Shown here piece after piece: positions 11,921 to 24,273 of a stretch of 64,000 nucleotides of DNA. This DNA is from Dictyostelium discoideum (taxonomy: Eukaryota). The notes beneath the pieces are model-generated. The model was not told where the DNA came from and did no database searches. It saw only the letters and a list, made by a program, of their open reading frames with translations. The DNA lies in assembly GCA_000004695.1 (NCBI GenBank), contig CM000153.2:128001-192000 (forward strand), read 5' to 3'. The stretch's first letter is position 1. Every line of letters starts with the position of its first letter. The position numbers were made by a program, and so were the translations under genes.

Positions 11921-12716
11921 GTATTAATTTGATGGGGGTATTTGTTGTTGTTGTTGTTGTGGTTTTTTAGTTGAACCAAATAAAGAAGTGATTCTATCAG
12001 AAACTGATTTTTGTTGTTGTTGTTGTTGTAATAAATTTTGTTGTTGTTGAATTGATTGTTGTTGTTGAGTATTTAAATTATTTGAAAGTTTATCTAATCT
12101 TGTCATAATGATTGCTAATTTACTATTGACTGCTAATAATTTACCCCTTGCATTTAATAACTTTTGAATATGTGGAAGTAATGGTGGTATTTGTGTAAGA
12201 TTATTGAATGAATCAAGTTCTAATTTTTATTTTATTCAATATTCAGTAGTTTGTGTATATATTTTTTGTTTAAAATTTCAATTTAAAAAATTAATTGATA
12301 AATAAATTGATTTACAATAATATTGATATTAATAATAGTAAAAGTAGTGGTAGTCATGGTGGTAGTGGTAGTGGTAGTGGTAGTGGTAGTGGTAGTGGTA
12401 GTGGTAGTGGTAGTGGTAGTGGTAGTGGTAGTGGTGGTAAGTATTTATTTTTAATAATATCTAAAAATATTTGAGAATAAAATGAAAAATAGAGGGAAGA
12501 AAAAGAAAAAAAAATAAAAATAAAAATAAAAAAGGGGCGGTGTGGGTGATAAAAAATGAAATTTAATTAATCCTTACCATGTGATAAACTATCAATTTGA
12601 TCTGAAAGTGTTTTTTGTGAATAATAAACTTCTTGAATCTTTGCATCACATTCCTTTACAACTGGTGATAATAATAAATAAAGTCCACTGGCTAAAATTG
12701 CTTTTGGATCTTGTGG

Positions 12717-12753
<37 letters not shown>

Positions 12754-12755
12754 GG

Positions 12756-12796
<41 letters not shown>

Positions 12797-12950
12797 GCTG
12801 TGGTTGTTGTTCTTCAACTTTATCTGTATTTATATTATCGTTATTATTTTGTTGTTGTTGTTGTTCATCTTTATTAATATTATTATTATTTATTTCCTCT
12901 TTTGGATTATTGTTTTCTTCAATTGCTGTATTAATTTCATTTTCACTCAT
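11921..12950 (-). CDS. Snapin (BLOC-1 / BORC subunit) homologue. Exons are join(11921..12219,12578..12950), with intron 12220..12577 (GTAAGG...AATTAG, phase 1).
   Basis: The spliced product reads ...GLYLLLSPVVKECDAKIQEVYYSQKTLSDQIDSLSH|ELDSFNNLTQIPPLLPHIQKLLNARGKLLAVNSKLAIIMTRLDKL.... This aligns with human SNAPIN (GLLEFLRPAVQQLDSHVHAVRESQVELREQIDNLATEL...KKLLNARRRVVLVNNILQNAQERLRRLN). The N-terminal extension contains a poly-Gln tract. The intron contains a (GGTAGT)13 microsatellite. Confidence 0.8.
12361..12436. repeat. (GGTAGT)n hexanucleotide microsatellite, about 13 units, inside the snapin intron.
   Basis: Perfect tandem ggtagt units follow the sequence ...aaagtagtggtagtcatggt. Confidence 0.95.
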
Positions 12951-13271
12951 TTTTTATTTTTTTTATTTTAAAAATAAATTAAAATAAAAAATAAAAAAAT
13001 AAAAAAATAAAAAAAATGTTCTATGGAAGCATTTATGAAAAAAAAAAAAAAAAAATAAAAATCTTACAGCAAATTTTTTTTTTTCATTTTTTTTTTCTTT
13101 TTTTAATTTTTATTTTTTTTATTTTTTATTTTTTATTTTTTATTTTTTATTTTTTTTAAAGAAGTTAAAAAACCCCACAAAGAAAAAAAAAGAATAAAAA
13201 TAAAATAAAGTACACAATCCACACACACACACCTCAAGTAAATACATCATATAAATTTAGAATATTATATA

Positions 13272-13856
13272 ATGAATTCAATGATTAGAAATGTACTTAA
13301 AACTACAACAAATGTTGGTTTAAAAAATACAAGTGGTTTAGTTTTTAGACAAACAAATGTTAATTTTTTAAAATCCTCAACAACCACAACAGCAATTAAA
13401 AGTGGAATTTTTGGAGAACTAATTACAAAAAGAAATTATCATGAAAGAGTATTGGATCATTATAATAACCCAAGAAATATTGGGTCATTCGATAAGAAAG
13501 ATATCGATGTTGGTACTGCAACCGTTGGTGCACCAGCATGTGGTGACGTTATGAAAATTCAAATCAAGGTAAAGGAAAACATTGTTGTCGATGTTTGTTT
13601 CAAAACTTTTGGTTGTGGTTCTGCAATCGCTTCAAGTTCATTGGCAACTGAATGGGTAAAAGGTAAAACATTAGATCAATGTCTCGAAATTAAAAATACC
13701 GATATCGCAAAACATCTCTCACTTCCACCAGTAAAAATGCATTGTAGTATGCTTGCCGAACAAGCTATCAAAAGAGCTATCTATGATTACAAAGTTAAAC
13801 ATGAAAAATTAAATTCATCTGAACAAACTACAATTGAAACTACTGCATCTTTGTAA
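13272..13856 (+). CDS. iscU: Mitochondrial iron-sulfur cluster scaffold protein IscU/Isu1, intronless, with an N-terminal presequence.
   Basis: HYNNPRNIGSFDKKDIDVGTATVGAPACGDVMKIQIKV...FKTFGCGSAIASSSLATEWVKGKTLDQCLEIKNTDIAKHLSLPPVKMHCSMLAEQAIKRAI is near-identical to the canonical IscU core. All three cluster-ligand Cys residues and the LPPVK Hsp70-binding motif are present. Confidence 0.92.
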   Translation: MNSMIRNVLKTTTNVGLKNTSGLVFRQTNVNFLKSSTTTTAIKSGIFGELITKRNYHERVLDHYNNPRNIGSFDKKDIDVGTATVGAPACGDVMKIQIKVKENIVVDVCFKTFGCGSAIASSSLATEWVKGKTLDQCLEIKNTDIAKHLSLPPVKMHCSMLAEQAIKRAIYDYKVKHEKLNSSEQTTIETTASL

Positions 13857-14398
13857 ATAATTTTAATAATTTAAAAAAATAAATAAAAAAATAAAAAAAT
13901 AAAAAAAAAATAAAAAAATATATAAAAAAAAAAAAAACTATTATAAATTTAAATAATATTGCCTTCTTTACTTTGATATATACCATTTTTATTATTTATT
14001 TTTTATTTATTCATCCTTTTTTTTATCGGGGTTTGGTTTTTCTTTTTTTTTTTTTTTTTTTTTTTTTTTTCGCTAAAATTTTTACGCCCTAAAAAAAATT
14101 AAAAAAATATCTCGAAATTATCGTTTTTTAATTAATTAATTAATTAATTAATTTAACTTTTTTTTTTTTTTTTTTTTTTTTATTGTATTTCTATTTTTGG
14201 AAACTCTCATAAGGGTTGATATGTAAGTATTTTATTAAATAGAGATTTTTTATAGTCTAATTGTTTTTTTTTTTTATTTTTACATTTTATTTTTTTTTTT
14301 TTTTTAAATTTTTTAAATTTTTTTTTTATTTTTTTTTTATATTTTTTTTTTTTTTAAATTTCTGCTTTGTAAATTCACACATAGAGCAAGTTAAAGAA

Positions 14399-14639
14399 AT
14401 GTTTAAAATAATCAAGATTAGAAATTTAGTGAAAAGTAGTAATTTTTCATTAAACAGATGCAATTTTAATAATAATTATAGGAATATAAATTTCAAAGAA
14501 AATAGGCTTTTTTCAACCTCAAATAGTATTATAGATAAAGATAAAATAAATTTTCAAAATGATATAAATAATAAATCCTTTGATAATAACAACAACACTA
14601 ATAGCAATAATATTAACAACGAAAACAAAAACAACCAAG

Positions 14640-14670
<31 letters not shown>

Positions 14671-14731
14671 CAACTACAATAATAGTAATAATAATAATAA
14701 TAATGATAATAATGACAATAATAACAACACA

Positions 14732-14772
<41 letters not shown>

Positions 14773-15277
14773 TAATAATAATAATAATAATTATAATTAT
14801 AATAACTCATATTATAATAAACGTTTAAAGTTTGATAAAGATTTCCGCATACTATTGCTTAAATCTTTGGGTATTATGTTTTTAGTTAGGACTTATGTTG
14901 TAGAGCTTACATATGTATGTATCTTTATTTTATTTATTTTAATAAAGTAGGAGATGAACAATTTGTTTTATTAATATTATTGTATTTAATTCCCCTCTCT
15001 ATCTATCTCTCTCTATGAATCTTACACATATACACAGTGTCAAGGTACATCAATGGAGCCAACAATAAACACAGGAGATTTCATTTTTATTAATAAATTA
15101 AGTAAAGATTATAAAGTTGGTGATTTAATTACTGCTGCTTGTCCAACTAATCAATTTTCAATTTGTAAAAGGATAAGGTTTGTTGTAAGTATTTCAAAAA
15201 TAATATTATAATTATAATATAAATAATTAATAATTAATAATAATAATAATAATACTCTCATATTTACATTTTATATT

Positions 15278-15314
<37 letters not shown>

Positions 15315-15635
15315 AACAACTAATAGGAAGGTGATAGAATTATATTTGAATCACCAAATGGTTTAGAGGTATATGAAGTTCCAAAAGATTATGTTTGGAT
15401 AGAAGGTGATAATTATGACACTTCAAGAGATTCTAGAATTTATGGTGCAATCCCAAAAAGATTAATAACTGGAAAAGTTTTAATGAGAGTAAGTCTTAAC
15501 TTTATCATTCAATATTTATATATTGTAGACCTTTTACTAATATATTTCTTTTTTTTCTCTCTCCACCTAAAGTTTTATCCACCCTCTTTATTAAAAGGAC
15601 CTGCTCCAATTACATTAACAGAGAAAATAAATTAA
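14399..15635 (+). CDS. Mitochondrial inner-membrane protease subunit, IMP1/IMMP1L-like (signal peptidase family S26), with an Asn-rich N-terminal extension. Exons are join(14399..14914,15038..15184,15327..15488,15573..15635).
   Basis: Exons 2-4 encode CQGTSMEPTINTGDFIFINKLSKDYKVGDLITAACPTNQFSICKRIRFV|EGDRIIFESPNGLEVYEVPKDYVWIEGDNYDTSRDSRIYGAIPKRLITGKVLMR|FYPPSLLKGPAPI. This matches human IMMP1L (SGPSMEPTIQNSDIVF...ICKRVIGLEGDKI...HVWLEGDNLQNSTDSRCYGPIPYGLIRGRIFFKIWP), including the catalytic Ser (SMEPT) and Lys (KR) positions. The donors are GTATGT, GTAAGT and GTAAGT. The acceptors are ...CACAG, ...AATAG and ...TAAAG, and all are phase 0. The choice of start codon at 14399 rather than 14261 is an inference. 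Confidence 0.72.
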
Positions 15636-15761
15636 TAAATAAATTAATAAATATATATTTGGTAACAATATTAATAAGATTTGAGAGAGAGAGAGGGAGA
15701 GATAATATTATATTATTTTGCATTTTATTTATTTATTTATTTATTTATTTGTTTTTTTTTG

Positions 15762-15803
<42 letters not shown>

Positions 15804-15806
<3 letters not shown>

Positions 15807-15950
15807 ATTTTATATTATTTATAAATCCCATGATTTGATTTGTTTATCGAAACCACCAGAAAATAATAAATTTAAAGATTTTGAAATGTGAATACAATTA
15901 ATTGAAGAATTTAAATGTCCTTGATAAACTTTATCTAATGAATAATTAAT

Positions 15951-15998
<48 letters not shown>

Positions 15999-17181
15999 TG
16001 ATGTTAATTTAAAAGATTTTAAAGAACCATTTTCAAAAGCACAATAAATTAAATTTGTATCACTATCAAATTGTAAATCATTAATTGATGAATTTTCATT
16101 TGTATTGATTTTTAATAAATATTGATTATCATTAAAATTATTTAAATTATCACAAGACCAAATTTTAATTGTACCATCATTTCCACCACTAATTAATTGA
16201 TTTAAATTATCATTATAAATAATCTTTCTAATCCATCCACCTTGATTTCCTTTAATAATATTTAAACACCTACCACTCTTTTTTTTTTTAAAAAATAATA
16301 AAAAATAAAAATAAAATAAAAATAAGAGAATTAATAAAATAATTTATAAATTATGTTATTTATATATGCTTACATTAATATCCCAAAATCTAATTGTACC
16401 ATCATTTGAACAAGAATATAAAGTATTTAAATTTTTATTAATTGCAATTGAAGAAACCCAACCATTATGACCAATGAATACTCTTTTAAAATTAATATTA
16501 TTTAAATCAAATTGTCTAATTGTATTATCATCAGAACATGTAAAGAAATAACTTGAATTTGGGATTACAATCAATTGATTAATTATACCAGTATGTCCAA
16601 TGAATGTTTGAATAACTTGTAAATTATTATCCCAGTATTGAATAGTTTTATCATGTGATGATGTTAATAAATTTTCAAATCCATAATCATTATTGTTATT
16701 GTTGTTACTACTAAAAATAAAAGTACTCCAAATTCCACCTCTTTTATGAATATATTTTGATTTTAGTACTTTAAAAATACCATTATCAGTATCATTACCA
16801 CTAGTATTTTCAAATTTCCAAATTTTAATTGATTTATCAATTGATGTTGTAAATAATTTACCATCATCTGATGAATTTATACTTGTAATTATATCTGTAT
16901 GATTTTTCAACACATTTTTAAATAATTTTATTTCTTTATTATTTTCATCATCATTATTAATATTGCTATTAATATCAATTTCATCATCATTAATATACCA
17001 TAATCCATATTCAATGAATCTATCTTTTTTACTTCTATGACCAATTATACAATTATTATGAATAATGAATGGTGTAATATTATCTCTTTGAGTAATTTTT
17101 AAATTAAAATAATTTGTACCATTTGGAAATAACTTTTTATCTAATAATCTATATCTAATTTTATCTTTTTTATCATTTTCC

Positions 17182-17254
<73 letters not shown>

Positions 17255-17984
17255 TAATTAATTAAATAATAAATTAATTAAATAATGAAAAATAAAAACT
17301 TACAGATAATGATAATAAAATATTTTTTGATTTAATATTAATACCTTGAGATTTTAAAAATAATCTCATTGCAATTTGATCATCAATACATGGGTTTAAG
17401 AAATTGATTGAATCTTGAATAAATTTAATTGTTCTTTGATTTGAACGAATGAAATAGAAACCAGCACAAATATCGTCATCATCTTGTTGAACGTATAAAT
17501 CAATGTCGTCATCGTTAGTGAATTGATTTTCTTGATTAATATCTTGATAGAAATGAATGAATGGATCTCTTTTCCAAACTATATCAGTATCAGTCCATAA
17601 TACATTATAACCTTTTTTTAAAACATCCAATACTACTAATGGTTTTTCATTACAAATCGCTCTAAATCCAATATCACCATATGACTCGGCATTTTCACTA
17701 TAAATTCCTTTATTATCGTTTGTATTATTATCATGAAAAAGTTGTGTTGATGATGTTGAAGAATTTATAATATCATCTCTTGAGAATCTTTGACACTCAA
17801 TACCTTTAAACTCTGCAAAGAATTGATATGCTTTATCATCCATACAATATAAAATGTATCTACTTTTATCAATTGATAACTTTTCAAAACATTTCAATAA
17901 ATTCAATGTCATATCTCTAAATCCATAATTACACATTAATACAATCTTATCATTTTCTTTAATATATTCAACTTTTTTTTCCAT
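15804..17984 (-). CDS. agtA: Fusion of a GT77-family glycosyltransferase with a WD40 beta-propeller, of about 653 aa. It matches the architecture and size of Dictyostelium AgtA, the Skp1 alpha-galactosyltransferase. Exons are join(15804..16277,16374..17180,17304..17984).
   Basis: Exon 1 (MEKKVEYIKENDKIVLMCNYGF...LWTDTDIVW...ICAGFYFIRSNQRT...) is a nucleotide-diphospho-sugar transferase (GT77 / Nucleotid_trans) domain. It ends at a phase-0 GTAAGT donor after ...KNILLSLS. The next exon begins directly after the acceptor TATAG at 17181 and contains no in-frame ATG. It therefore cannot start a gene and must be an internal exon. The downstream exons encode WD40 repeats (GHTGIINQLIVIP...TCSDDNTIRQFDL; GHNGWVSSIAI...SCSNDGTIRFWDI; GGNDGTIKIWS). 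Published AgtA is 648 aa with exactly this domain order. Confidence 0.75.
17184..17250. repeat. (TAA)n microsatellite forming most of the agtA intron 17181..17303.
   Basis: ataataataat... lies between the acceptor TATAG at 17181/17182 and the donor GTAAGT at 17298..17303. Confidence 0.9.
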
Positions 17985-18069
17985 GTTTTTTGGGTATAAA
18001 AAAAAAAAAAAAAAAAACAATTACAAAAAAATGATAAACAATTAAATTCTAAAAATAAAAATTTTTATC

Positions 18070-18100
<31 letters not shown>

Positions 18101-18173
18101 TATTTTTTCATCCAAAATGCAAAATTTATATTTTTTTTAAAAAAAAAAAAAAGAAAAAAAAAGAAAAGAAAAA

Positions 18174-18336
18174 ACTCCTCTTTACCAAAAGTAATAAAAA
18201 AAAAATTAAAGTTATTATTAAAAAAAATAATAAACCGATAAAAAAAAAAAAAAAAAAAAAACTCCTCTTTAATTTTTTTTTTTATTACTTTTGGTAAAGT
18301 TATTATTAAAAAAAATAATAAAACGATAAAAAAAAA
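18174..18336. repeat. Two tandem copies of about 75 bp in which a central segment of about 30 bp is inverted between copies.
   Basis: Copy A at 18174..18248 is actcctCTTTAccaaaagtaataaaaaaaaaattAAAGttattattaaaaaaaataataaaccgataaaaaaa. Copy B at 18261..18336 is actcctCTTTAatttttttttttattacttttggTAAAGttattattaaaaaaaataataaaacgataaaaaaa. The segment between the short inverted repeats CTTTA/TAAAG is in reverse-complement orientation in copy B. Confidence 0.85.
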
Positions 18337-19250
18337 AAAAAAATTCAGACGTTTTGTGTGTCTTTTGGCTTAAAATAAAATTTTCAGTGTAAAAACATTA
18401 TTATTTTGTTAAAAAACATTATTAAAAAAAATCTTTTATCATGTAGCTAAGTTGTGTTGGCATCATTATCGTTTTTTCAGGTAAAAAAAAGCCTTATAAA
18501 AAAAAAAACAATTCTTTTAATTTTATTTTAATTTTTATTTTAATTAAATTTTTATTTTTAATTTTAATTTTAATTTTAATTTTTTTTTTATTTTTTTTTT
18601 TTTTTTTTTATTTTTTTTTTATTTTTTTTTTTCATTTAATATATCAATAATAATATTTTATCGAGAAACCACTTTTTAAAATAATTTATTTCTTTTTTTT
18701 TTTTTTTTTTTTTTTTTTTCATTTAATATATCAATAATAATATTTTAATTAAATTTAATTTTTTTTTATTTTTTTATTTTTCTTTTTTTTAAACTATATC
18801 TATCATTTATAAAAACTATTTTTTTTTTCGATTTATATTTATAATTTTAATATATCAACAATTATTTTAAATTATTTTCCATTAATAATAAGAAATTTTC
18901 CAAATTTAGAAAATCACAAATTTTAATTTCAATTTTTTTTTTTTTTATTTTATTTTTTTAATTACAAAACACCAATTTTTATAATTTTTAAAAATCACTT
19001 TAAACAATTTTATTATTATTATTATTTTTTTTTTAACCACCCCCAAAAAAAAAAAAAATATAATTATTCTCTTTCTTTTTTTTTTTTCTTCAACACTCTC
19101 GCACACATAATTTAATTTATCTGTTATCTTTTCGTGTCATATAATTTATCATTATTAAATAATTAATAATAATAATAAATAAATAATTAAATAAATAAAT
19201 AAATAAATAATAATTTTTTATTACGTATATACACATAATATAAATTTTCC

Positions 19251-19287
<37 letters not shown>

Positions 19288-19312
19288 ATTTAAAAAATAT
19301 AACAATAAAAAA

Positions 19313-20900
19313 ATGGAGGCAGCAACAAATACTTTAAGATCAATGTTTCCAAAGAGTTCAGCAGACCAATGTGTTTCTGCATTAAAAGTTAATAATTGGG
19401 ATTTAAGTGCAACTATTGACTATATGTTAGCACAAACTGCAACTGAGGAACAACAAGTTCAACAACAAGTCCAACAACAAGTTAACCCTTCAATTCCACC
19501 ACCACCACCACCACAAACAATTCCACCACCATTACCAGCCAATGTAATTGAATCTGAAGAGGATAAATTATTAAAAGAATTTTTATTCCTTGAACAACAA
19601 ATACACATTAATAGAATTCCAACTCCACCACCATACAATCCTTCAACAAACAACATTAAACCATCAATTGCTGTAGTTGAAAAGGTTGAGCCAATTTCAA
19701 TTCCACCACCACCTCCACTACCACAACCAATTGTTCATGAACATCAACCACAACAAGAACAACAACAAGAACAACAACAAGAACAACAAGAAAAACAAGA
19801 GGAAGAACCAAAAACTAGAGAAAATAATAGTTTATTAAGAAATATTACAAATACTCTTAAAGAATTGGAAAATGAAGTTAGAAATTTAGTTATGGAAAAG
19901 AAACCACAACCAAATGTTGTTGAAACTGTTGAAACTACTGAAACCGTTATCTCAAATAATAACAACAACAATGACAATGTTGAAAATATTGCTCAAAATA
20001 ATATCGAACAATTAGTTGAAAAAGTTGAACAAGAACAACAAGAACAAGAAGAAGAACAAGAAGAAGAACAAGAAGAAGAACAAGAAAATAATGAAAACAA
20101 TAATAACAACAATAGTCAAATACCAAATGAAGTTAAAGTTGCAATCGATCAATTGGAATCATTATTTAACTCTTCATTAGAAAAAACTGAAAAGATTTTA
20201 AATGAATTAAAAGAAGAAATTACAAGTTGGAAAATTAAAGATAATGTTAAAACTTTCACCGTTACCGTTAGAAATGAATTATCTGATATGTTGGCCTCTT
20301 TAGCAAACTATATCTCACCAGAACAAACTGTAAATACTCAAGAAGAAATTGAAACTGGTTTAATTTAAACTTTGATTTTCAATATCATCATTATTTATTG
20401 TTGTTGTTCTTTTTATTTTCCTCTTTTCTATTTTTTTATGTACCTTTAACTCTTATTTATTTGGATTAAAATAGTTTGGTCTCTTTTTATTTCCTCTTTA
20501 AACTACTTTCTATCTCAACATAAAAAAAAAAAAAATAATAAAAAACTTTCTTCCATATACTACTTTCTATCCACTTCCTTTCTAAACTTTTTTTTTTTAA
20601 GATATAGTTCTCTCCCCTTTATAATTTTCCAATTTTATTGTTCTTTTTTTTTTACTAATAATAATCTTTTTTTTAAAATTTTTTTAGCAAGTTCAAATTC
20701 AAAGAAAGGAAGCAAAAAGACAAGAATTAGAGAATAAATTAAAAGAATTAAAGGAACATAATAGAAATTTAGAAGAGGAAAGAAGAATTGCAATTGAAAA
20801 GATTGAAAATAAATATAAACAACAAACAACAACTACAACCTCTTCTGGTAATCAAATTCCACCACCACCACCATATCCAGAAGAAAATTCTGAACAATAA
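19313..20900 (+). CDS. CUE-domain protein with Pro-rich and Glu/Gln-rich coiled-coil regions. Proposed exons are join(19313..20329,20688..20900). The alternative is the unspliced ORF 19313..20368.
   Basis: The N-terminus TLRSMFPKSSADQCVSALKVNNWDLSATIDYMLAQ has the CUE MFP motif. The ORF 20688..20900 has no start codon and encodes QVQIQRKEAKRQELENKLKELKEHNRNLEEERRIAIEKIENKYKQQ...PPPPPYPEENSEQ. It begins right after a polypyrimidine tract plus AG. A phase-0 GTAAAT donor after ...ISPEQT at 20329 joins it in frame to exon 1. Confidence 0.6.
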
Positions 20901-21066
20901 ATAATATATTAAGTTTTAAATAAATAGTTTATGTATCTTTTAATATATACATTTTGTGCATTTTTTTTTTTTTTTAATATTATTATTATTATTTACAAAA
21001 AAAATTTATTTATTTATTAATTTATTTACAAGTTTATTTTGTTTATTTTTTTTTATTATTTTTTTT

Positions 21067-23575
21067 TTATCTAGTAATTGTATATTTATTATTACCACTT
21101 TTTAAAATCATTCCTTGATTATTTAAACCTTCTAAAACATCATTAAAATTTTCAAAAGGTAATTTATATTCTTTAACAATTTGTAAGAGTTCTTGTTTTG
21201 AAAAAGTTGATGTACCAGTTTTTGAGGCTTCTTTATTGAAAATTGAAATATATTTTTTAGATAAACCACTTTTACTCATACCAGTGGCTCTTCTAAAATC
21301 AATATTACCATGTTCATCTTCAAAAGTATCCAAAAGTGAATCTCTCATAATCTCTACGATATCGATTGCATCTTGTTCTGTAACGGTTTCACGTAATTCA
21401 AGTTTTGCTCTTGCTTCTGCTAAACGAATTAATGATTCCAATTGACGAGTTGTAACTGGCATTGAATCAGAACCTGTAGATTTTGAACGAAGTTCTAAAT
21501 AAAATTTTTGTATAACTTTAATTGCCTCTTCTGAAAGTCTTGGTGAAACATATTTCTTTGCATAACTTATATATTTTCTAAGGATAACTGTTGGAATTAA
21601 ATTAATCTCTTGACCATGAGTTATTAATAATTTTTGTTTTAATGGTAATGATTTATCATGATCTTCTTCATGAGTATATTGAGATGAATTTGTTGTTGCC
21701 GAGGATGATGATGATGATTGTTGAGGTTTTCTTTTTTTAACGCCTGATCCATTTGAATGAAGATTTAAAATATTATGAGAGATAATATGATCCTTTTCAG
21801 TGTTTGGTTTATCCATTAAAATGAAAATTAAATCGAATCTACTGAGTAGTGGTGCACTCATTTTGATATTTTCTGAAACTGTCTTTGCACGATTATAATG
21901 ACCCCCGACTGGATTAGCAGCAGCAACTACAGATGTACGAGCTGGTAAATTACAAACAATACCAGCCTTTGCAATACTAACCGATTGTTGTTCCATTGCT
22001 TCGAGTAGAGCAGGATGTTCATCTGTCATCTTATCGAATTCATCTATACAACAACAACCTTGATCCGCCAATACCAAAGCACCAGCTTCAATTGCAAAAT
22101 CACCTGAACCTTTTTCTCTTAACAATGTTACAGTTAAACCTGTTGTACTTGAATAGCCACCACAAACATAAACACCACGAGGTGATAAATGATAGATCGA
22201 TGTTAACATTTGACTTTTACCTAAACCAGGATCACCAACAATTAAAACATGTGGATCCGATCTAATTGATAGTTTATTCTTGTCGGATCCATTACTACTT
22301 CTATTTGGACTACCACCAAACAAAGCCAATGTTAAACCTGCTTTAACCAATTCATGCCCATAGATGGTTGGACAAATTGAATTTGAAATTAATTTGAAAA
22401 TATTTGGATGTTCAGCAATCTCTTTAATACCATACATATCCTTTAAAGAGAAGGAGGTAGTTTCAATCTTTCCTCCATTGCCACTAGTTCTCTTTGGGGA
22501 ATCTATAGAGTTTACATCTATATAAATGAGGAAAACAGGTTTATTTTGATTTTGAAAACCTGTTTCCTCTGCTCTTAATACTTTTACAACACCACTAATG
22601 GTCACAATATCGCCAGGTACAATAGTTTCAACCATTTCATCGGTGATTTCACATTCAAATGCTTTTGGTATACCACTTGATTCCTTTTGGTCGGCATCCT
22701 CTTGAATTCTAATTTTTTGCCAATCTATAGTGACGGCGGTTGATCTATCCGGTTCGAATATTTTACCTCTACAACCATGATTTAAACAATTTGAAGGAAA
22801 TGTAACTTTTCCCTCTGTAAAATATTGTGTTGGTGTACGTGTTGAACATTTATTACAAATGAATTGCATTTGAGTTACCAATGGTTTAACATTACCAACA
22901 CGAATTACAGTACCTTTTAATGAAACAAATTTATCAATAAGATTTGCTTTCAATTTCTTTAATTGTAATAATGGTTCAAAATGAAATATCCTTATATTTA
23001 TCTTTTTCTTTGGTCTTTGACTCTCTGAAACATTTTCATATAATACTTGATAAATTACAACACCTAAACAATTAATTACCATTTCTGAATCATCTCTTAA
23101 TCTAATTTCAAATTGATCTTCTACTCTATAAATTTGATTTTTTAATAATTGATAATCTAATGGTATTGTATTATTTTCATCTGGTGCATAAAGTGTCTAA
23201 AATAATAATTTTAATTAATTTAATAAATCAATTAATAATTTTTGTATTATTTAATTTTTATCTTACCTCATTACAAACATCTCTAAAAAGTGGAAGTGAT
23301 AATTGAATGAATTGATGTCTCTTTTCAAGTATTGCCTCTTGATTTAATTTTTCATCACCATTTTCAATAATTTTATTTGTTTTTGGTGGGAAATATAGTT
23401 TATATCCAATTAACTCATCCAATTGCGGATGTTGTTGTTGTTGCTGCTGTTGTTGACTTTGTTCTCTTTGTATAGTTTGTTGAGATTTAAATTGGACATA
23501 GTCATCACCTTCACTATTATTTCTTCGAATAATTTGTGTATTTGTGTTATTATTATTATTATTATTATTATACAT
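21067..23575 (-). CDS. mcm8: DNA helicase MCM8 (MCM family AAA+). Exons are join(21067..23196,23267..23575), with intron 23197..23266 (GTAAGA...TTTAG, phase 0).
   Basis: LIVGDPGLGKSQML...GVYVCGGYSSTTGLTVTL...SGDFAIEAGALVLADQGCCCIDEFDKMTDEHPALLEAMEQQSVSIAKAGIVCNLPARTSVVAAANPVGGHYNRAKTVSENIKMSAPLLSRFDL is almost residue-for-residue human MCM8. It has Walker A, Walker B and the arginine finger. An N-terminal Zn-finger/OB region (CNKCSTRTP...CLNHGC) and C-terminal winged-helix region are present. Exon 1 adds a 103-aa low-complexity N-terminus. Confidence 0.85.
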
Positions 23576-23836
23576 TAAACAAAAGAAATGAAAATAAAAA
23601 AAATTAAAAAAAATAAAAATAAAAATGAAAAAATAAAAAAAAAAAATTCAAAAAATAAAAAAAAAAAGTTTCTTTTCTAAGAAATATATTTGTTCCAAGT
23701 TTGTGTGTTTTTTTTTTTTTTTTTTTTTTTTTGAAAATAATTATTTATTTTTTTTGTACAGAGGAGATAAAAATCGGATTATGATTATAATTCTCCTTTA
23801 TTTATCGGAAGAGGGAAGAGGTTTTCGATTGTGAAT

Positions 23837-23869
<33 letters not shown>

Positions 23870-23993
23870 ATGGAGACGGGGCACGATTTAAAATATATTT
23901 TATTGAAGGTGGTATTACTTGATAAAAAAAAAAAGGTGAAATTATATTTGAAATATTATTATTATTATTATTATACTGTTATTGTGATTACTA

Positions 23994-24273
23994 CTACTTT
24001 TTAACAAAGAATTTGATTGATGCACCAATTACAACGGCAAGAATTAATAAAATCACAACGACTAAAATTATTATTCTCTTTTTTGATCTTGATTTATAAA
24101 CATATGCCTTTTCCAATTCTTCTACACCATATTCAATCTCTAAATCTGCTGTTGTAACATTATTATCTGCTTGAACTAACATTTCACCTTGTTCATCTAC
24201 CATCATTCTATATATTTTTTTTTTATTAATAATTTATTTATTTTAGGAAATAAAAAAATAAATAATAAATAAA

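Follow-up and report, generated by a model that had tools for sequence, protein, structure and literature searches.

Two open reading frames and one spliced gene

The window (the whole 64,000-nucleotide stretch of Dictyostelium discoideum DNA analysed here) has a GC content of 21% and contains long runs of single nucleotides and of triplets, as Dictyostelium DNA typically does. On its minus strand, the list of open reading frames (ORFs) holds a 248-codon ORF with glycosyltransferase sequence (17274..18020) and, apart from it, a 185-codon ORF with WD40 sequence (16356..16913). This raises the question of whether the two ORFs belong to separate genes or to a single gene and, if the latter, which gene that is. 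The original prediction named this pair of ORFs and held that they form one gene, a GT77–WD40 fusion of the AgtA type. We found that both ORFs belong to exons of the same gene, an ordinary spliced one, and that their apparent separation is an artefact of stop-to-stop, intron-blind ORF listing.

The gene, which is almost certainly agtA (see below), occupies 17984..15819 on the minus strand and has three exons, with every junction in phase 0. Exon 1 (17304..17984, 681 nt, codons 1–227) starts at the ATG at 17984; the upstream ORF has no earlier ATG, and an in-frame TAA lies 12 codons 5′ of this one. Orthologue N termini likewise begin with MEKK. The first three quarters of the GT77 catalytic domain are encoded by this exon, which ends at 17304, with the predicted phase-0 GTAAGT donor at 17303. 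Intron 1 (17181..17303, 123 nt, 3% GC) runs from GTAAGT to TATAG, and its bulk is a triplet microsatellite, (TAA)n on the plus strand (TRF 17183..17322), as had also been predicted. Exon 2 (16374..17180, 807 nt, codons 228–496) begins at 17180, immediately after the TATAG acceptor, and has no in-frame ATG. The prediction was right on both points but had described exon 2 simply as a WD40 exon, whereas it encodes the last ~60 residues of GT77, a linker, WD40 blades 1–4 and part of blade 5. Intron 1, which had been placed between the glycosyltransferase and WD40 parts, in fact cuts the catalytic domain between residues 227 and 228; the point at which the two domains are fused lies elsewhere. The WD40 region is further split by intron 2 (16278..16373, 96 nt, GTAAGC to AAAAG, 7% GC, phase 0), a second correction to the earlier model. 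Exon 3 (15819..16277, 459 nt, codons 497–648 and the TAA stop at 15821..15819) encodes the last WD40 blades, and its C-terminal sequence, KQIKSWDL, is kept across Dictyostelium. The spliced coding frame is 1,947 nt long and encodes 648 amino acids rather than the roughly 653 foreseen; coding sequence ends at 15819, and position 15804, previously given as the end of the gene, falls in a homopolymer run past the stop. The exons have a GC content of 21%, compared with 3–7% in the introns.

The alternative is that the locus contains two independent genes, a small GT77 enzyme encoded by the ORF at 17274..18020 and a WD40 protein that starts somewhere within 16356..17180. The stop-to-stop list does show the ORFs apart, and a very AT-rich spacer of 123 nt could in principle house a promoter. 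However, a separate WD40 protein would have nowhere obvious to start: in-frame ATG codons are absent from exons 2 and 3 (no methionine follows residue 206), which leaves one GTG and two TTG codons as possible starts, and exon 3 is devoid of in-frame ATG, GTG and TTG alike. Nor would the glycosyltransferase be complete. The Pfam Nucleotid_trans match (residues 41–282) spans the 227|228 junction, and the unspliced ORF would be short of ~60 residues at the end of PF03407, among them the invariant motifs FPNGT.YFN (residues 245–253) and HNNCIIGH (residues 268–275), both of which are encoded in exon 2. Reading on into either intron without splicing brings stops within 5–10 codons (10 in intron 1 and 5 in intron 2).

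The spacer itself behaves as an intron, and orthologues are continuous across it, which further argues against two genes. Both junctions named in the original prediction, 17304|17180 and 16374|16277, are in phase 0 and gap-free in a protein alignment of nine species (LSLS|ENDKK and WDIN|SGRCLN, respectively). Intron positions and GT/AG sites are common to a second D. discoideum genome (L001), Dictyostelium dimigraforme (L002) and Dictyostelium purpureum (L003), with the GT and AG dinucleotides in register in DNA alignments with the first two; when the annotated D. purpureum protein was threaded through its locus, one intron more than in the window gene was found. Against the second D. discoideum isolate, nucleotide identity is 0.98–0.995 in exons and 0.85–0.90 in introns (0.90 in intron 1, compared with 0.98 in the exons flanking it, and 0.85 in intron 2, compared with 0.99 in exons); against D. 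dimigraforme, it is 0.88–0.90 in exons and 0.67–0.68 in introns. The indels within introns have lengths not divisible by three and include, in intron 1, a 44-nt length difference. In Cavenderia fasciculata (L004), both introns are absent and a single 1,227-nt exon carries residues 1–409, which comprise GT77, linker and propeller blade 1. In each of the metagenomic homologues P0011 and P0013, both parts share one frame in a single uninterrupted ORF, and the NCBI annotation of related Dictyostelium and Cavenderia genomes has one gene at the locus. The two-gene reading thus has a vanishingly small probability and is effectively refuted, and the predicted union of the two ORFs into a single gene is supported, on the evidence of a domain that spans the junction, a downstream part lacking an ATG, conserved introns, continuous orthologues and similar selective constraint on both halves. 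In intron-containing eukaryotic DNA of 21% GC such as this, an ORF list made in the bacterial manner breaks genes into pieces, and adjacent ORFs of the same frame family need to be linked across GT...AG introns ahead of any interpretation.

The GT77 catalytic domain

The GT77 domain (PF03407, Nucleotid_trans) extends over residues ~10–290 (16992..17957, minus strand, split by intron 1). Similarity of the N-terminal half to GT77 enzymes, on which the original prediction depended, was readily found: the PF03407 profile matched residues 41–282 with 95.7 bits (cutoff 22) and an E value of 4.9e-27, covering profile positions 4–208 of 208. The correspondence between PF03407 and CAZy family GT77 has been described (PMC8778642). 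When the domain was compared with the PDB by sequence, only chance-level matches to arrestins were returned (E about 0.8). Because the PDB contains no GT77 structure detectable by sequence, we compared folds, and the catalytic half models as a GT-A fold of the retaining type (a Rossmann-like nucleotide-diphospho-sugar transferase).

Three motifs stand out in this domain. A candidate DxD metal/nucleotide-sugar motif, D132-T-D134 (17583..17591, minus strand), follows directly on a core strand (residues 127–131) in the model; T131, D132 and D134 are invariant in two alignments (A1 and A2), and the motif may have a catalytic role. An acidic run, QQDDDD, with D168–D171 at 17472..17483 (minus strand), represents a conserved acidic motif of the domain. 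Here, D168–D170 are invariant over amoebozoan and metagenomic homologues (alignments A1, A2 and A3), and position 171 is either D or G. The most conserved motif of the family is H268-NNCIIG-H275 (17037..17060, minus strand), which is encoded by exon 2, past intron 1, and is invariant in the same three alignments; it could provide a metal ligand or form part of the active-site wall. At residues ~72–110, pLDDT falls below 50 in a loop of low complexity. The loop that is disordered and of low complexity in D. discoideum is occupied by a B-box-like zinc-finger insert in Heterostelium, Cavenderia and Acytostelium.

Plant GT77 enzymes, such as the rhamnogalacturonan-II xylosyltransferases and extensin arabinosyltransferases, share their Pfam and CAZy family with the window domain. 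They are type II Golgi membrane proteins that act on wall polymers or extensins and, to our knowledge, have no WD40 domain. The window protein differs from them in its propeller and, by inspection, in its N terminus (MEKKVEYIKENDK), which looks hydrophilic and free of a hydrophobic anchor and gives way at residue 12 to the first beta strand. A relationship between AgtA and the plant enzymes that synthesize pectin has been reported (PMC8724618).

The WD40 propeller

The WD40 domain comprises residues ~311–648 (15822..16931, minus strand, split by intron 2). Its profile match has an E value of 1e-44, with matches beginning at about residue 310, and the region models as a seven-bladed beta propeller of 28 strands. 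An (AAT)18 microsatellite at 15945..15998 (minus strand) encodes a poly-asparagine insert (15 Asn) in a propeller loop, and pLDDT is below 50 at residues 592–603. The insert is 27 nt shorter in the second D. discoideum isolate and longer in D. dimigraforme.

We also considered a receptor of the F-box/WD40 (Fbxw) type, for example beta-TrCP1 (PDB 1p22), as a known counterpart. This candidate was rejected: no F-box family was found among the best 25 of 32 listed Pfam matches, which comprised only Nucleotid_trans and WD40-type families, and the N-terminal 300 residues, where Fbxw receptors carry the F-box, fold as GT-A in the model.

Identity of the gene as agtA

These features taken together identify 17984..15819, with near certainty, as the known and already characterised agtA gene of D. 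discoideum, a single three-exon gene with a 648-aa GT77–WD40 product. The identification rests on its architecture, length and species-level similarity and on the presence of one such protein per dictyostelid genome. The published length of AgtA, which we take to be 648 aa, is that of the spliced product. AgtA of D. discoideum, a UDP-Gal:fucoside alpha-3-galactosyltransferase, is reportedly the subject of papers in the Journal of Biological Chemistry by Ercan et al. (2006, 281:12713) and Schafer et al. (2014, 289:9076). The window protein and AgtA are alike in organism group and in having an N-terminal GT77 domain followed by a C-terminal WD40 propeller, an architecture documented for AgtA (PMC8724618, PMC13278062), and the prediction of an AgtA-type fusion is therefore borne out. 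The genes are alike in being single copy per genome and in synteny with orthologues, and no difference between them in these respects was detected. All of the GT77/PF03407 and AgtA features that could be tested were present, namely the profile match, the fold, the acidic motif, the fused architecture, unique-copy orthology and the gene neighbourhood.

A homology search returned one GT77–WD40 protein for every named dictyostelid species found, D. discoideum included. Fusion proteins were found in the D. discoideum isolate, D. dimigraforme, D. purpureum, Tieghemostelium, Heterostelium, Cavenderia, Acytostelium, Physarum and Arcella, and all of these orthologues are collinear over both junctions. 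Identity to the window protein is 81% for D. dimigraforme and 62% for D. purpureum. The best match is the 646-aa protein of the D. discoideum isolate, for which BLASTP gives 95% identity and a count of aligned columns 98%. From 12429 to 23969, over at least 11.5 kb that include neighbouring genes, the window and the locus of this isolate are collinear, and every Dictyostelium locus has Peptidase_S26 and NifU genes on its downstream side. This collinearity and the shared neighbours indicate orthology. The isolate sequence is the nearest D. discoideum sequence to the window gene and is separated from it by a dS of 0.063, which indicates that the two come from different strains.

A rival reading is that the window gene is a paralogue, a second D. 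discoideum GT77–WD40 gene with a different substrate. An exact look-up of the 648-aa sequence in a collection of 15 billion proteins gave no match, and the closest D. discoideum protein is 95–98% rather than 100% identical, both of which count in favour of a paralogue. However, the search found exactly one GT77–WD40 protein per named dictyostelid species, the collinearity with the locus of that closest protein points to orthology or allelism, the differences are scattered substitutions and microsatellite length changes at low dS, and the length equals that quoted for AgtA. A paralogue is, on this evidence, very improbable. Even less probable, in our judgement, is that the locus is a decaying, non-functional copy that only looks intact. 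Such decay might be suspected from the long asparagine and serine low-complexity tracts and the disordered loops (pLDDT below 50 at residues 72–110 and 592–603), but these tracts fall in loops and are frequent in Dictyostelium proteins. Moreover, the spliced frame is open over 648 codons, every family-invariant residue is present, and the Nei–Gojobori dN/dS values against three species are low: 0.14 against the D. discoideum isolate, 0.20 against D. dimigraforme and 0.26 against D. purpureum. In the same three comparisons, the two halves separately gave 0.14–0.21 (GT) and 0.11–0.29 (WD40). The agtA gene is the preferred reading of the locus; as the gene is already known, its re-identification adds no new knowledge.

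A proposed mechanism and a functional analogue

AgtA is described as a GT77 alpha-3-galactosyltransferase that ‘operates twice’ to make the Skp1 pentasaccharide, and its C-terminal WD40 propeller is said to modulate Skp1 and to assist addition of the second sugar (PMC8724618). It has likewise been characterised as an amoebozoa-specific, dual-function glycosyltransferase that adds the fourth and fifth Skp1 sugars, both of them alpha-3-linked galactose, and that stands in for Glt1 and Gat1, both of which are missing from amoebozoa (10.1101/764241). The pathway proceeds in the order PhyA, Gnt1, PgtA and AgtA on Hyp143 of Skp1, and trisaccharide-bearing Skp1 builds up in agtA-null cells (PMC3515798). 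The WD40 domain strongly binds unmodified Skp1 and can sequester it, and catalytically dead AgtA inhibits Skp1 modification and terminal differentiation (PMC13278062); for the binding of Skp1 by the WD40 domain, both PMC13278062 and PMC8724618 cite Schafer et al. 2014.

On this basis, the 648-aa product would be a cytoplasmic protein that combines a retaining GT-A domain of family GT77 with a seven-bladed propeller. With UDP-galactose as donor, its catalytic domain would extend the Fuc-Gal-GlcNAc trisaccharide at hydroxyproline-143 of Skp1 by two alpha-3-linked galactoses, one after the other, and would so complete the pentasaccharide, the formation of which would depend on the O2-dependent prolyl hydroxylase PhyA. 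The propeller would bind Skp1 and help the second galactose addition, and it may also sequester or buffer Skp1 independently of catalysis. We take from the published work on AgtA what the window protein would use as donor sugar and acceptor, which linkage it would form and that it would bind Skp1; the GT-A fold with its DxD motif, the hydrophilic N terminus and the propeller agree fully with that mechanism.

The functional analogue in Toxoplasma and Pythium is Gat1 (PDB 6mw8). This retaining alpha-galactosyltransferase of the cytoplasm puts the terminal sugar on the Skp1 pentasaccharide and, like AgtA, also binds Skp1 non-enzymatically (10.1101/764241, PMC13278062). In other respects, the two enzymes differ. 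Gat1 belongs to CAZy family GT8 and is glycogenin-like, whereas the window protein belongs to GT77; Gat1 has no WD40 domain, whereas the window protein has a propeller; and Gat1 is responsible for the fifth sugar alone, whereas both the fourth and the fifth are added by AgtA. By sequence, no match of the window catalytic domain to any PDB chain was detectable, and identity to Gat1 over the structural alignment was only 11%. The likeness is at the level of the fold only and is of the same degree as that to glycogenin or A64R. The two enzymes also have complementary distributions, with Gat1 in SAR and archaeplastid protists and AgtA in amoebozoa.

Distribution of the fusion and metagenomic relatives

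The original prediction also called the fusion rare outside amoebozoa. Published work places AgtA in amoebozoa only (10.1101/764241), and in our homology search all named GT77–WD40 matches came from Amoebozoa. When 185,579 genomes of bacteria and archaea were scanned with two patterns, one of them HNNCIIGH, the scan produced 161 pattern matches but 0 GT77–WD40 relatives confirmed by tblastn. The claim fits the data as far as named organisms and prokaryotes go, but three metagenomic GT77–WD40 fusion proteins keep it short of proof.

These three proteins are 26–29% identical to the window protein and are encoded on short contigs with a GC content of 47–58%. Contigs L005 and L006 have 56–58% GC, and L005 is densely packed, with the fusion gene adjoining a desulfoferrodoxin gene and a Rad52 gene; contigs L007–L009 have 47% GC. 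A 528-aa protein is also encoded next to these relatives, and the contigs come from samples 3300055001 and 3300035623. The proteins of the two groups, 605 and 687 aa long, are encoded by intronless single ORFs and have both domains and all of the family-invariant motifs. Within its limits, the two-pattern prokaryotic scan lends no support to the idea that the metagenomic homologues came from bacteria. We consider it unlikely that AgtA-type GT77–WD40 fusions extend beyond Amoebozoa.

The window gene itself is ordinary, and the question of a wider distribution concerns related loci. Should the metagenomic contigs prove non-amoebozoan, with an anaerobic protist as one possible source, the AgtA route to the Skp1 pentasaccharide would have a greater age or mobility than the view of it as an amoebozoan invention allows. 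In Dictyostelium, the gene is a well-studied part of the Skp1 hydroxylation and glycosylation pathway of O2 sensing.

Intron turnover in AgtA orthologues

Introns have been turned over among the AgtA orthologues. The D. purpureum gene (L003:3001-4973) has introns at both of the positions used in D. discoideum, together with a third that lies within the first WD40 blades, at KIWEINGN|TQLF. The Cavenderia gene (L004:3001-5125) is interrupted only at this third position and is without both D. discoideum introns.

We also observed a B-box-type zinc-finger-like insert within the GT77 domain of the orthologues from Heterostelium (P0007, residues 72-103), Cavenderia (P0008, residues 76-108) and Acytostelium (P0009, residues 99-131), with bit scores for Pfam PF00643 of 23.6-25.5 against a cutoff of 24.1. 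The equivalent site in D. discoideum AgtA, at residues ~70-104 (about 17673..17777, minus strand), holds only a disordered Ser/Asn-rich loop.

GT77-WD40 fusion genes in metagenomes

Genes encoding GT77 and WD40 domains together were found on metagenome contigs with a GC content of 47-58% (L005:2503-4320, L006:619-2436 and L007:11-2074, and also on L008 and L009). Their products are 26-29% identical to AgtA of the window, and every family-invariant motif is present in them. Proteins of 605 and 687 aa are each encoded by one ORF without introns. On L005, the fusion gene is tightly packed and adjoins genes for desulfoferrodoxin and Rad52. A two-pattern scan of 185,579 prokaryotic genomes in GTDB revealed no relative.

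Genomic surroundings of agtA

We considered the flanks of agtA in the window from ~12400 to 15500 and from 18400 to 24000. Kept across the Dictyostelium loci are, downstream, a mitochondrial-type signal peptidase gene (Peptidase_S26) and a NifU/IscU scaffold gene and, upstream, a 412-aa gene, which had no Pfam matches, and an MCM-family (MCM8-like) gene. On the plus strand, the ORF spanning 15053..15211 appears to belong to the Peptidase_S26 gene as one of its exons. Before the agtA ATG, the 5' flank (18020..18400) has a GC content of 5-19% and contains a number of T/A homopolymers, each 20-36 nt long. A near-duplicate segment of ~40 nt, 'tatcg(t/g)tttattatttttttaataataacttta', was spotted by eye in this flank, with minus-strand copies at about 18325..18290 and 18240..18205.

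Divergence between the window and L001

We compared positions 12429..23969 of the window with L001, a locus from an assembly labelled D. discoideum (GCA_054859355.1), and found the two to be collinear, with an overall difference of about 10% when gaps are counted. Two triplet microsatellites in agtA differ in length between them: the repeat in intron 1 (17183..17322) by 44 nt, and the coding (AAT)18 repeat in exon 3 (15945..15998) by 27 nt, such that the poly-Asn tract comprises 15 Asn in the window and 6 in L001. This tract falls in a low-confidence propeller loop of the predicted AgtA model. Synonymous divergence in agtA between the two sequences (dS) was 0.063, which is high for two strains within one species. 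It is possible that the L001 isolate represents a cryptic sister lineage or that a different strain group is the source of the window.
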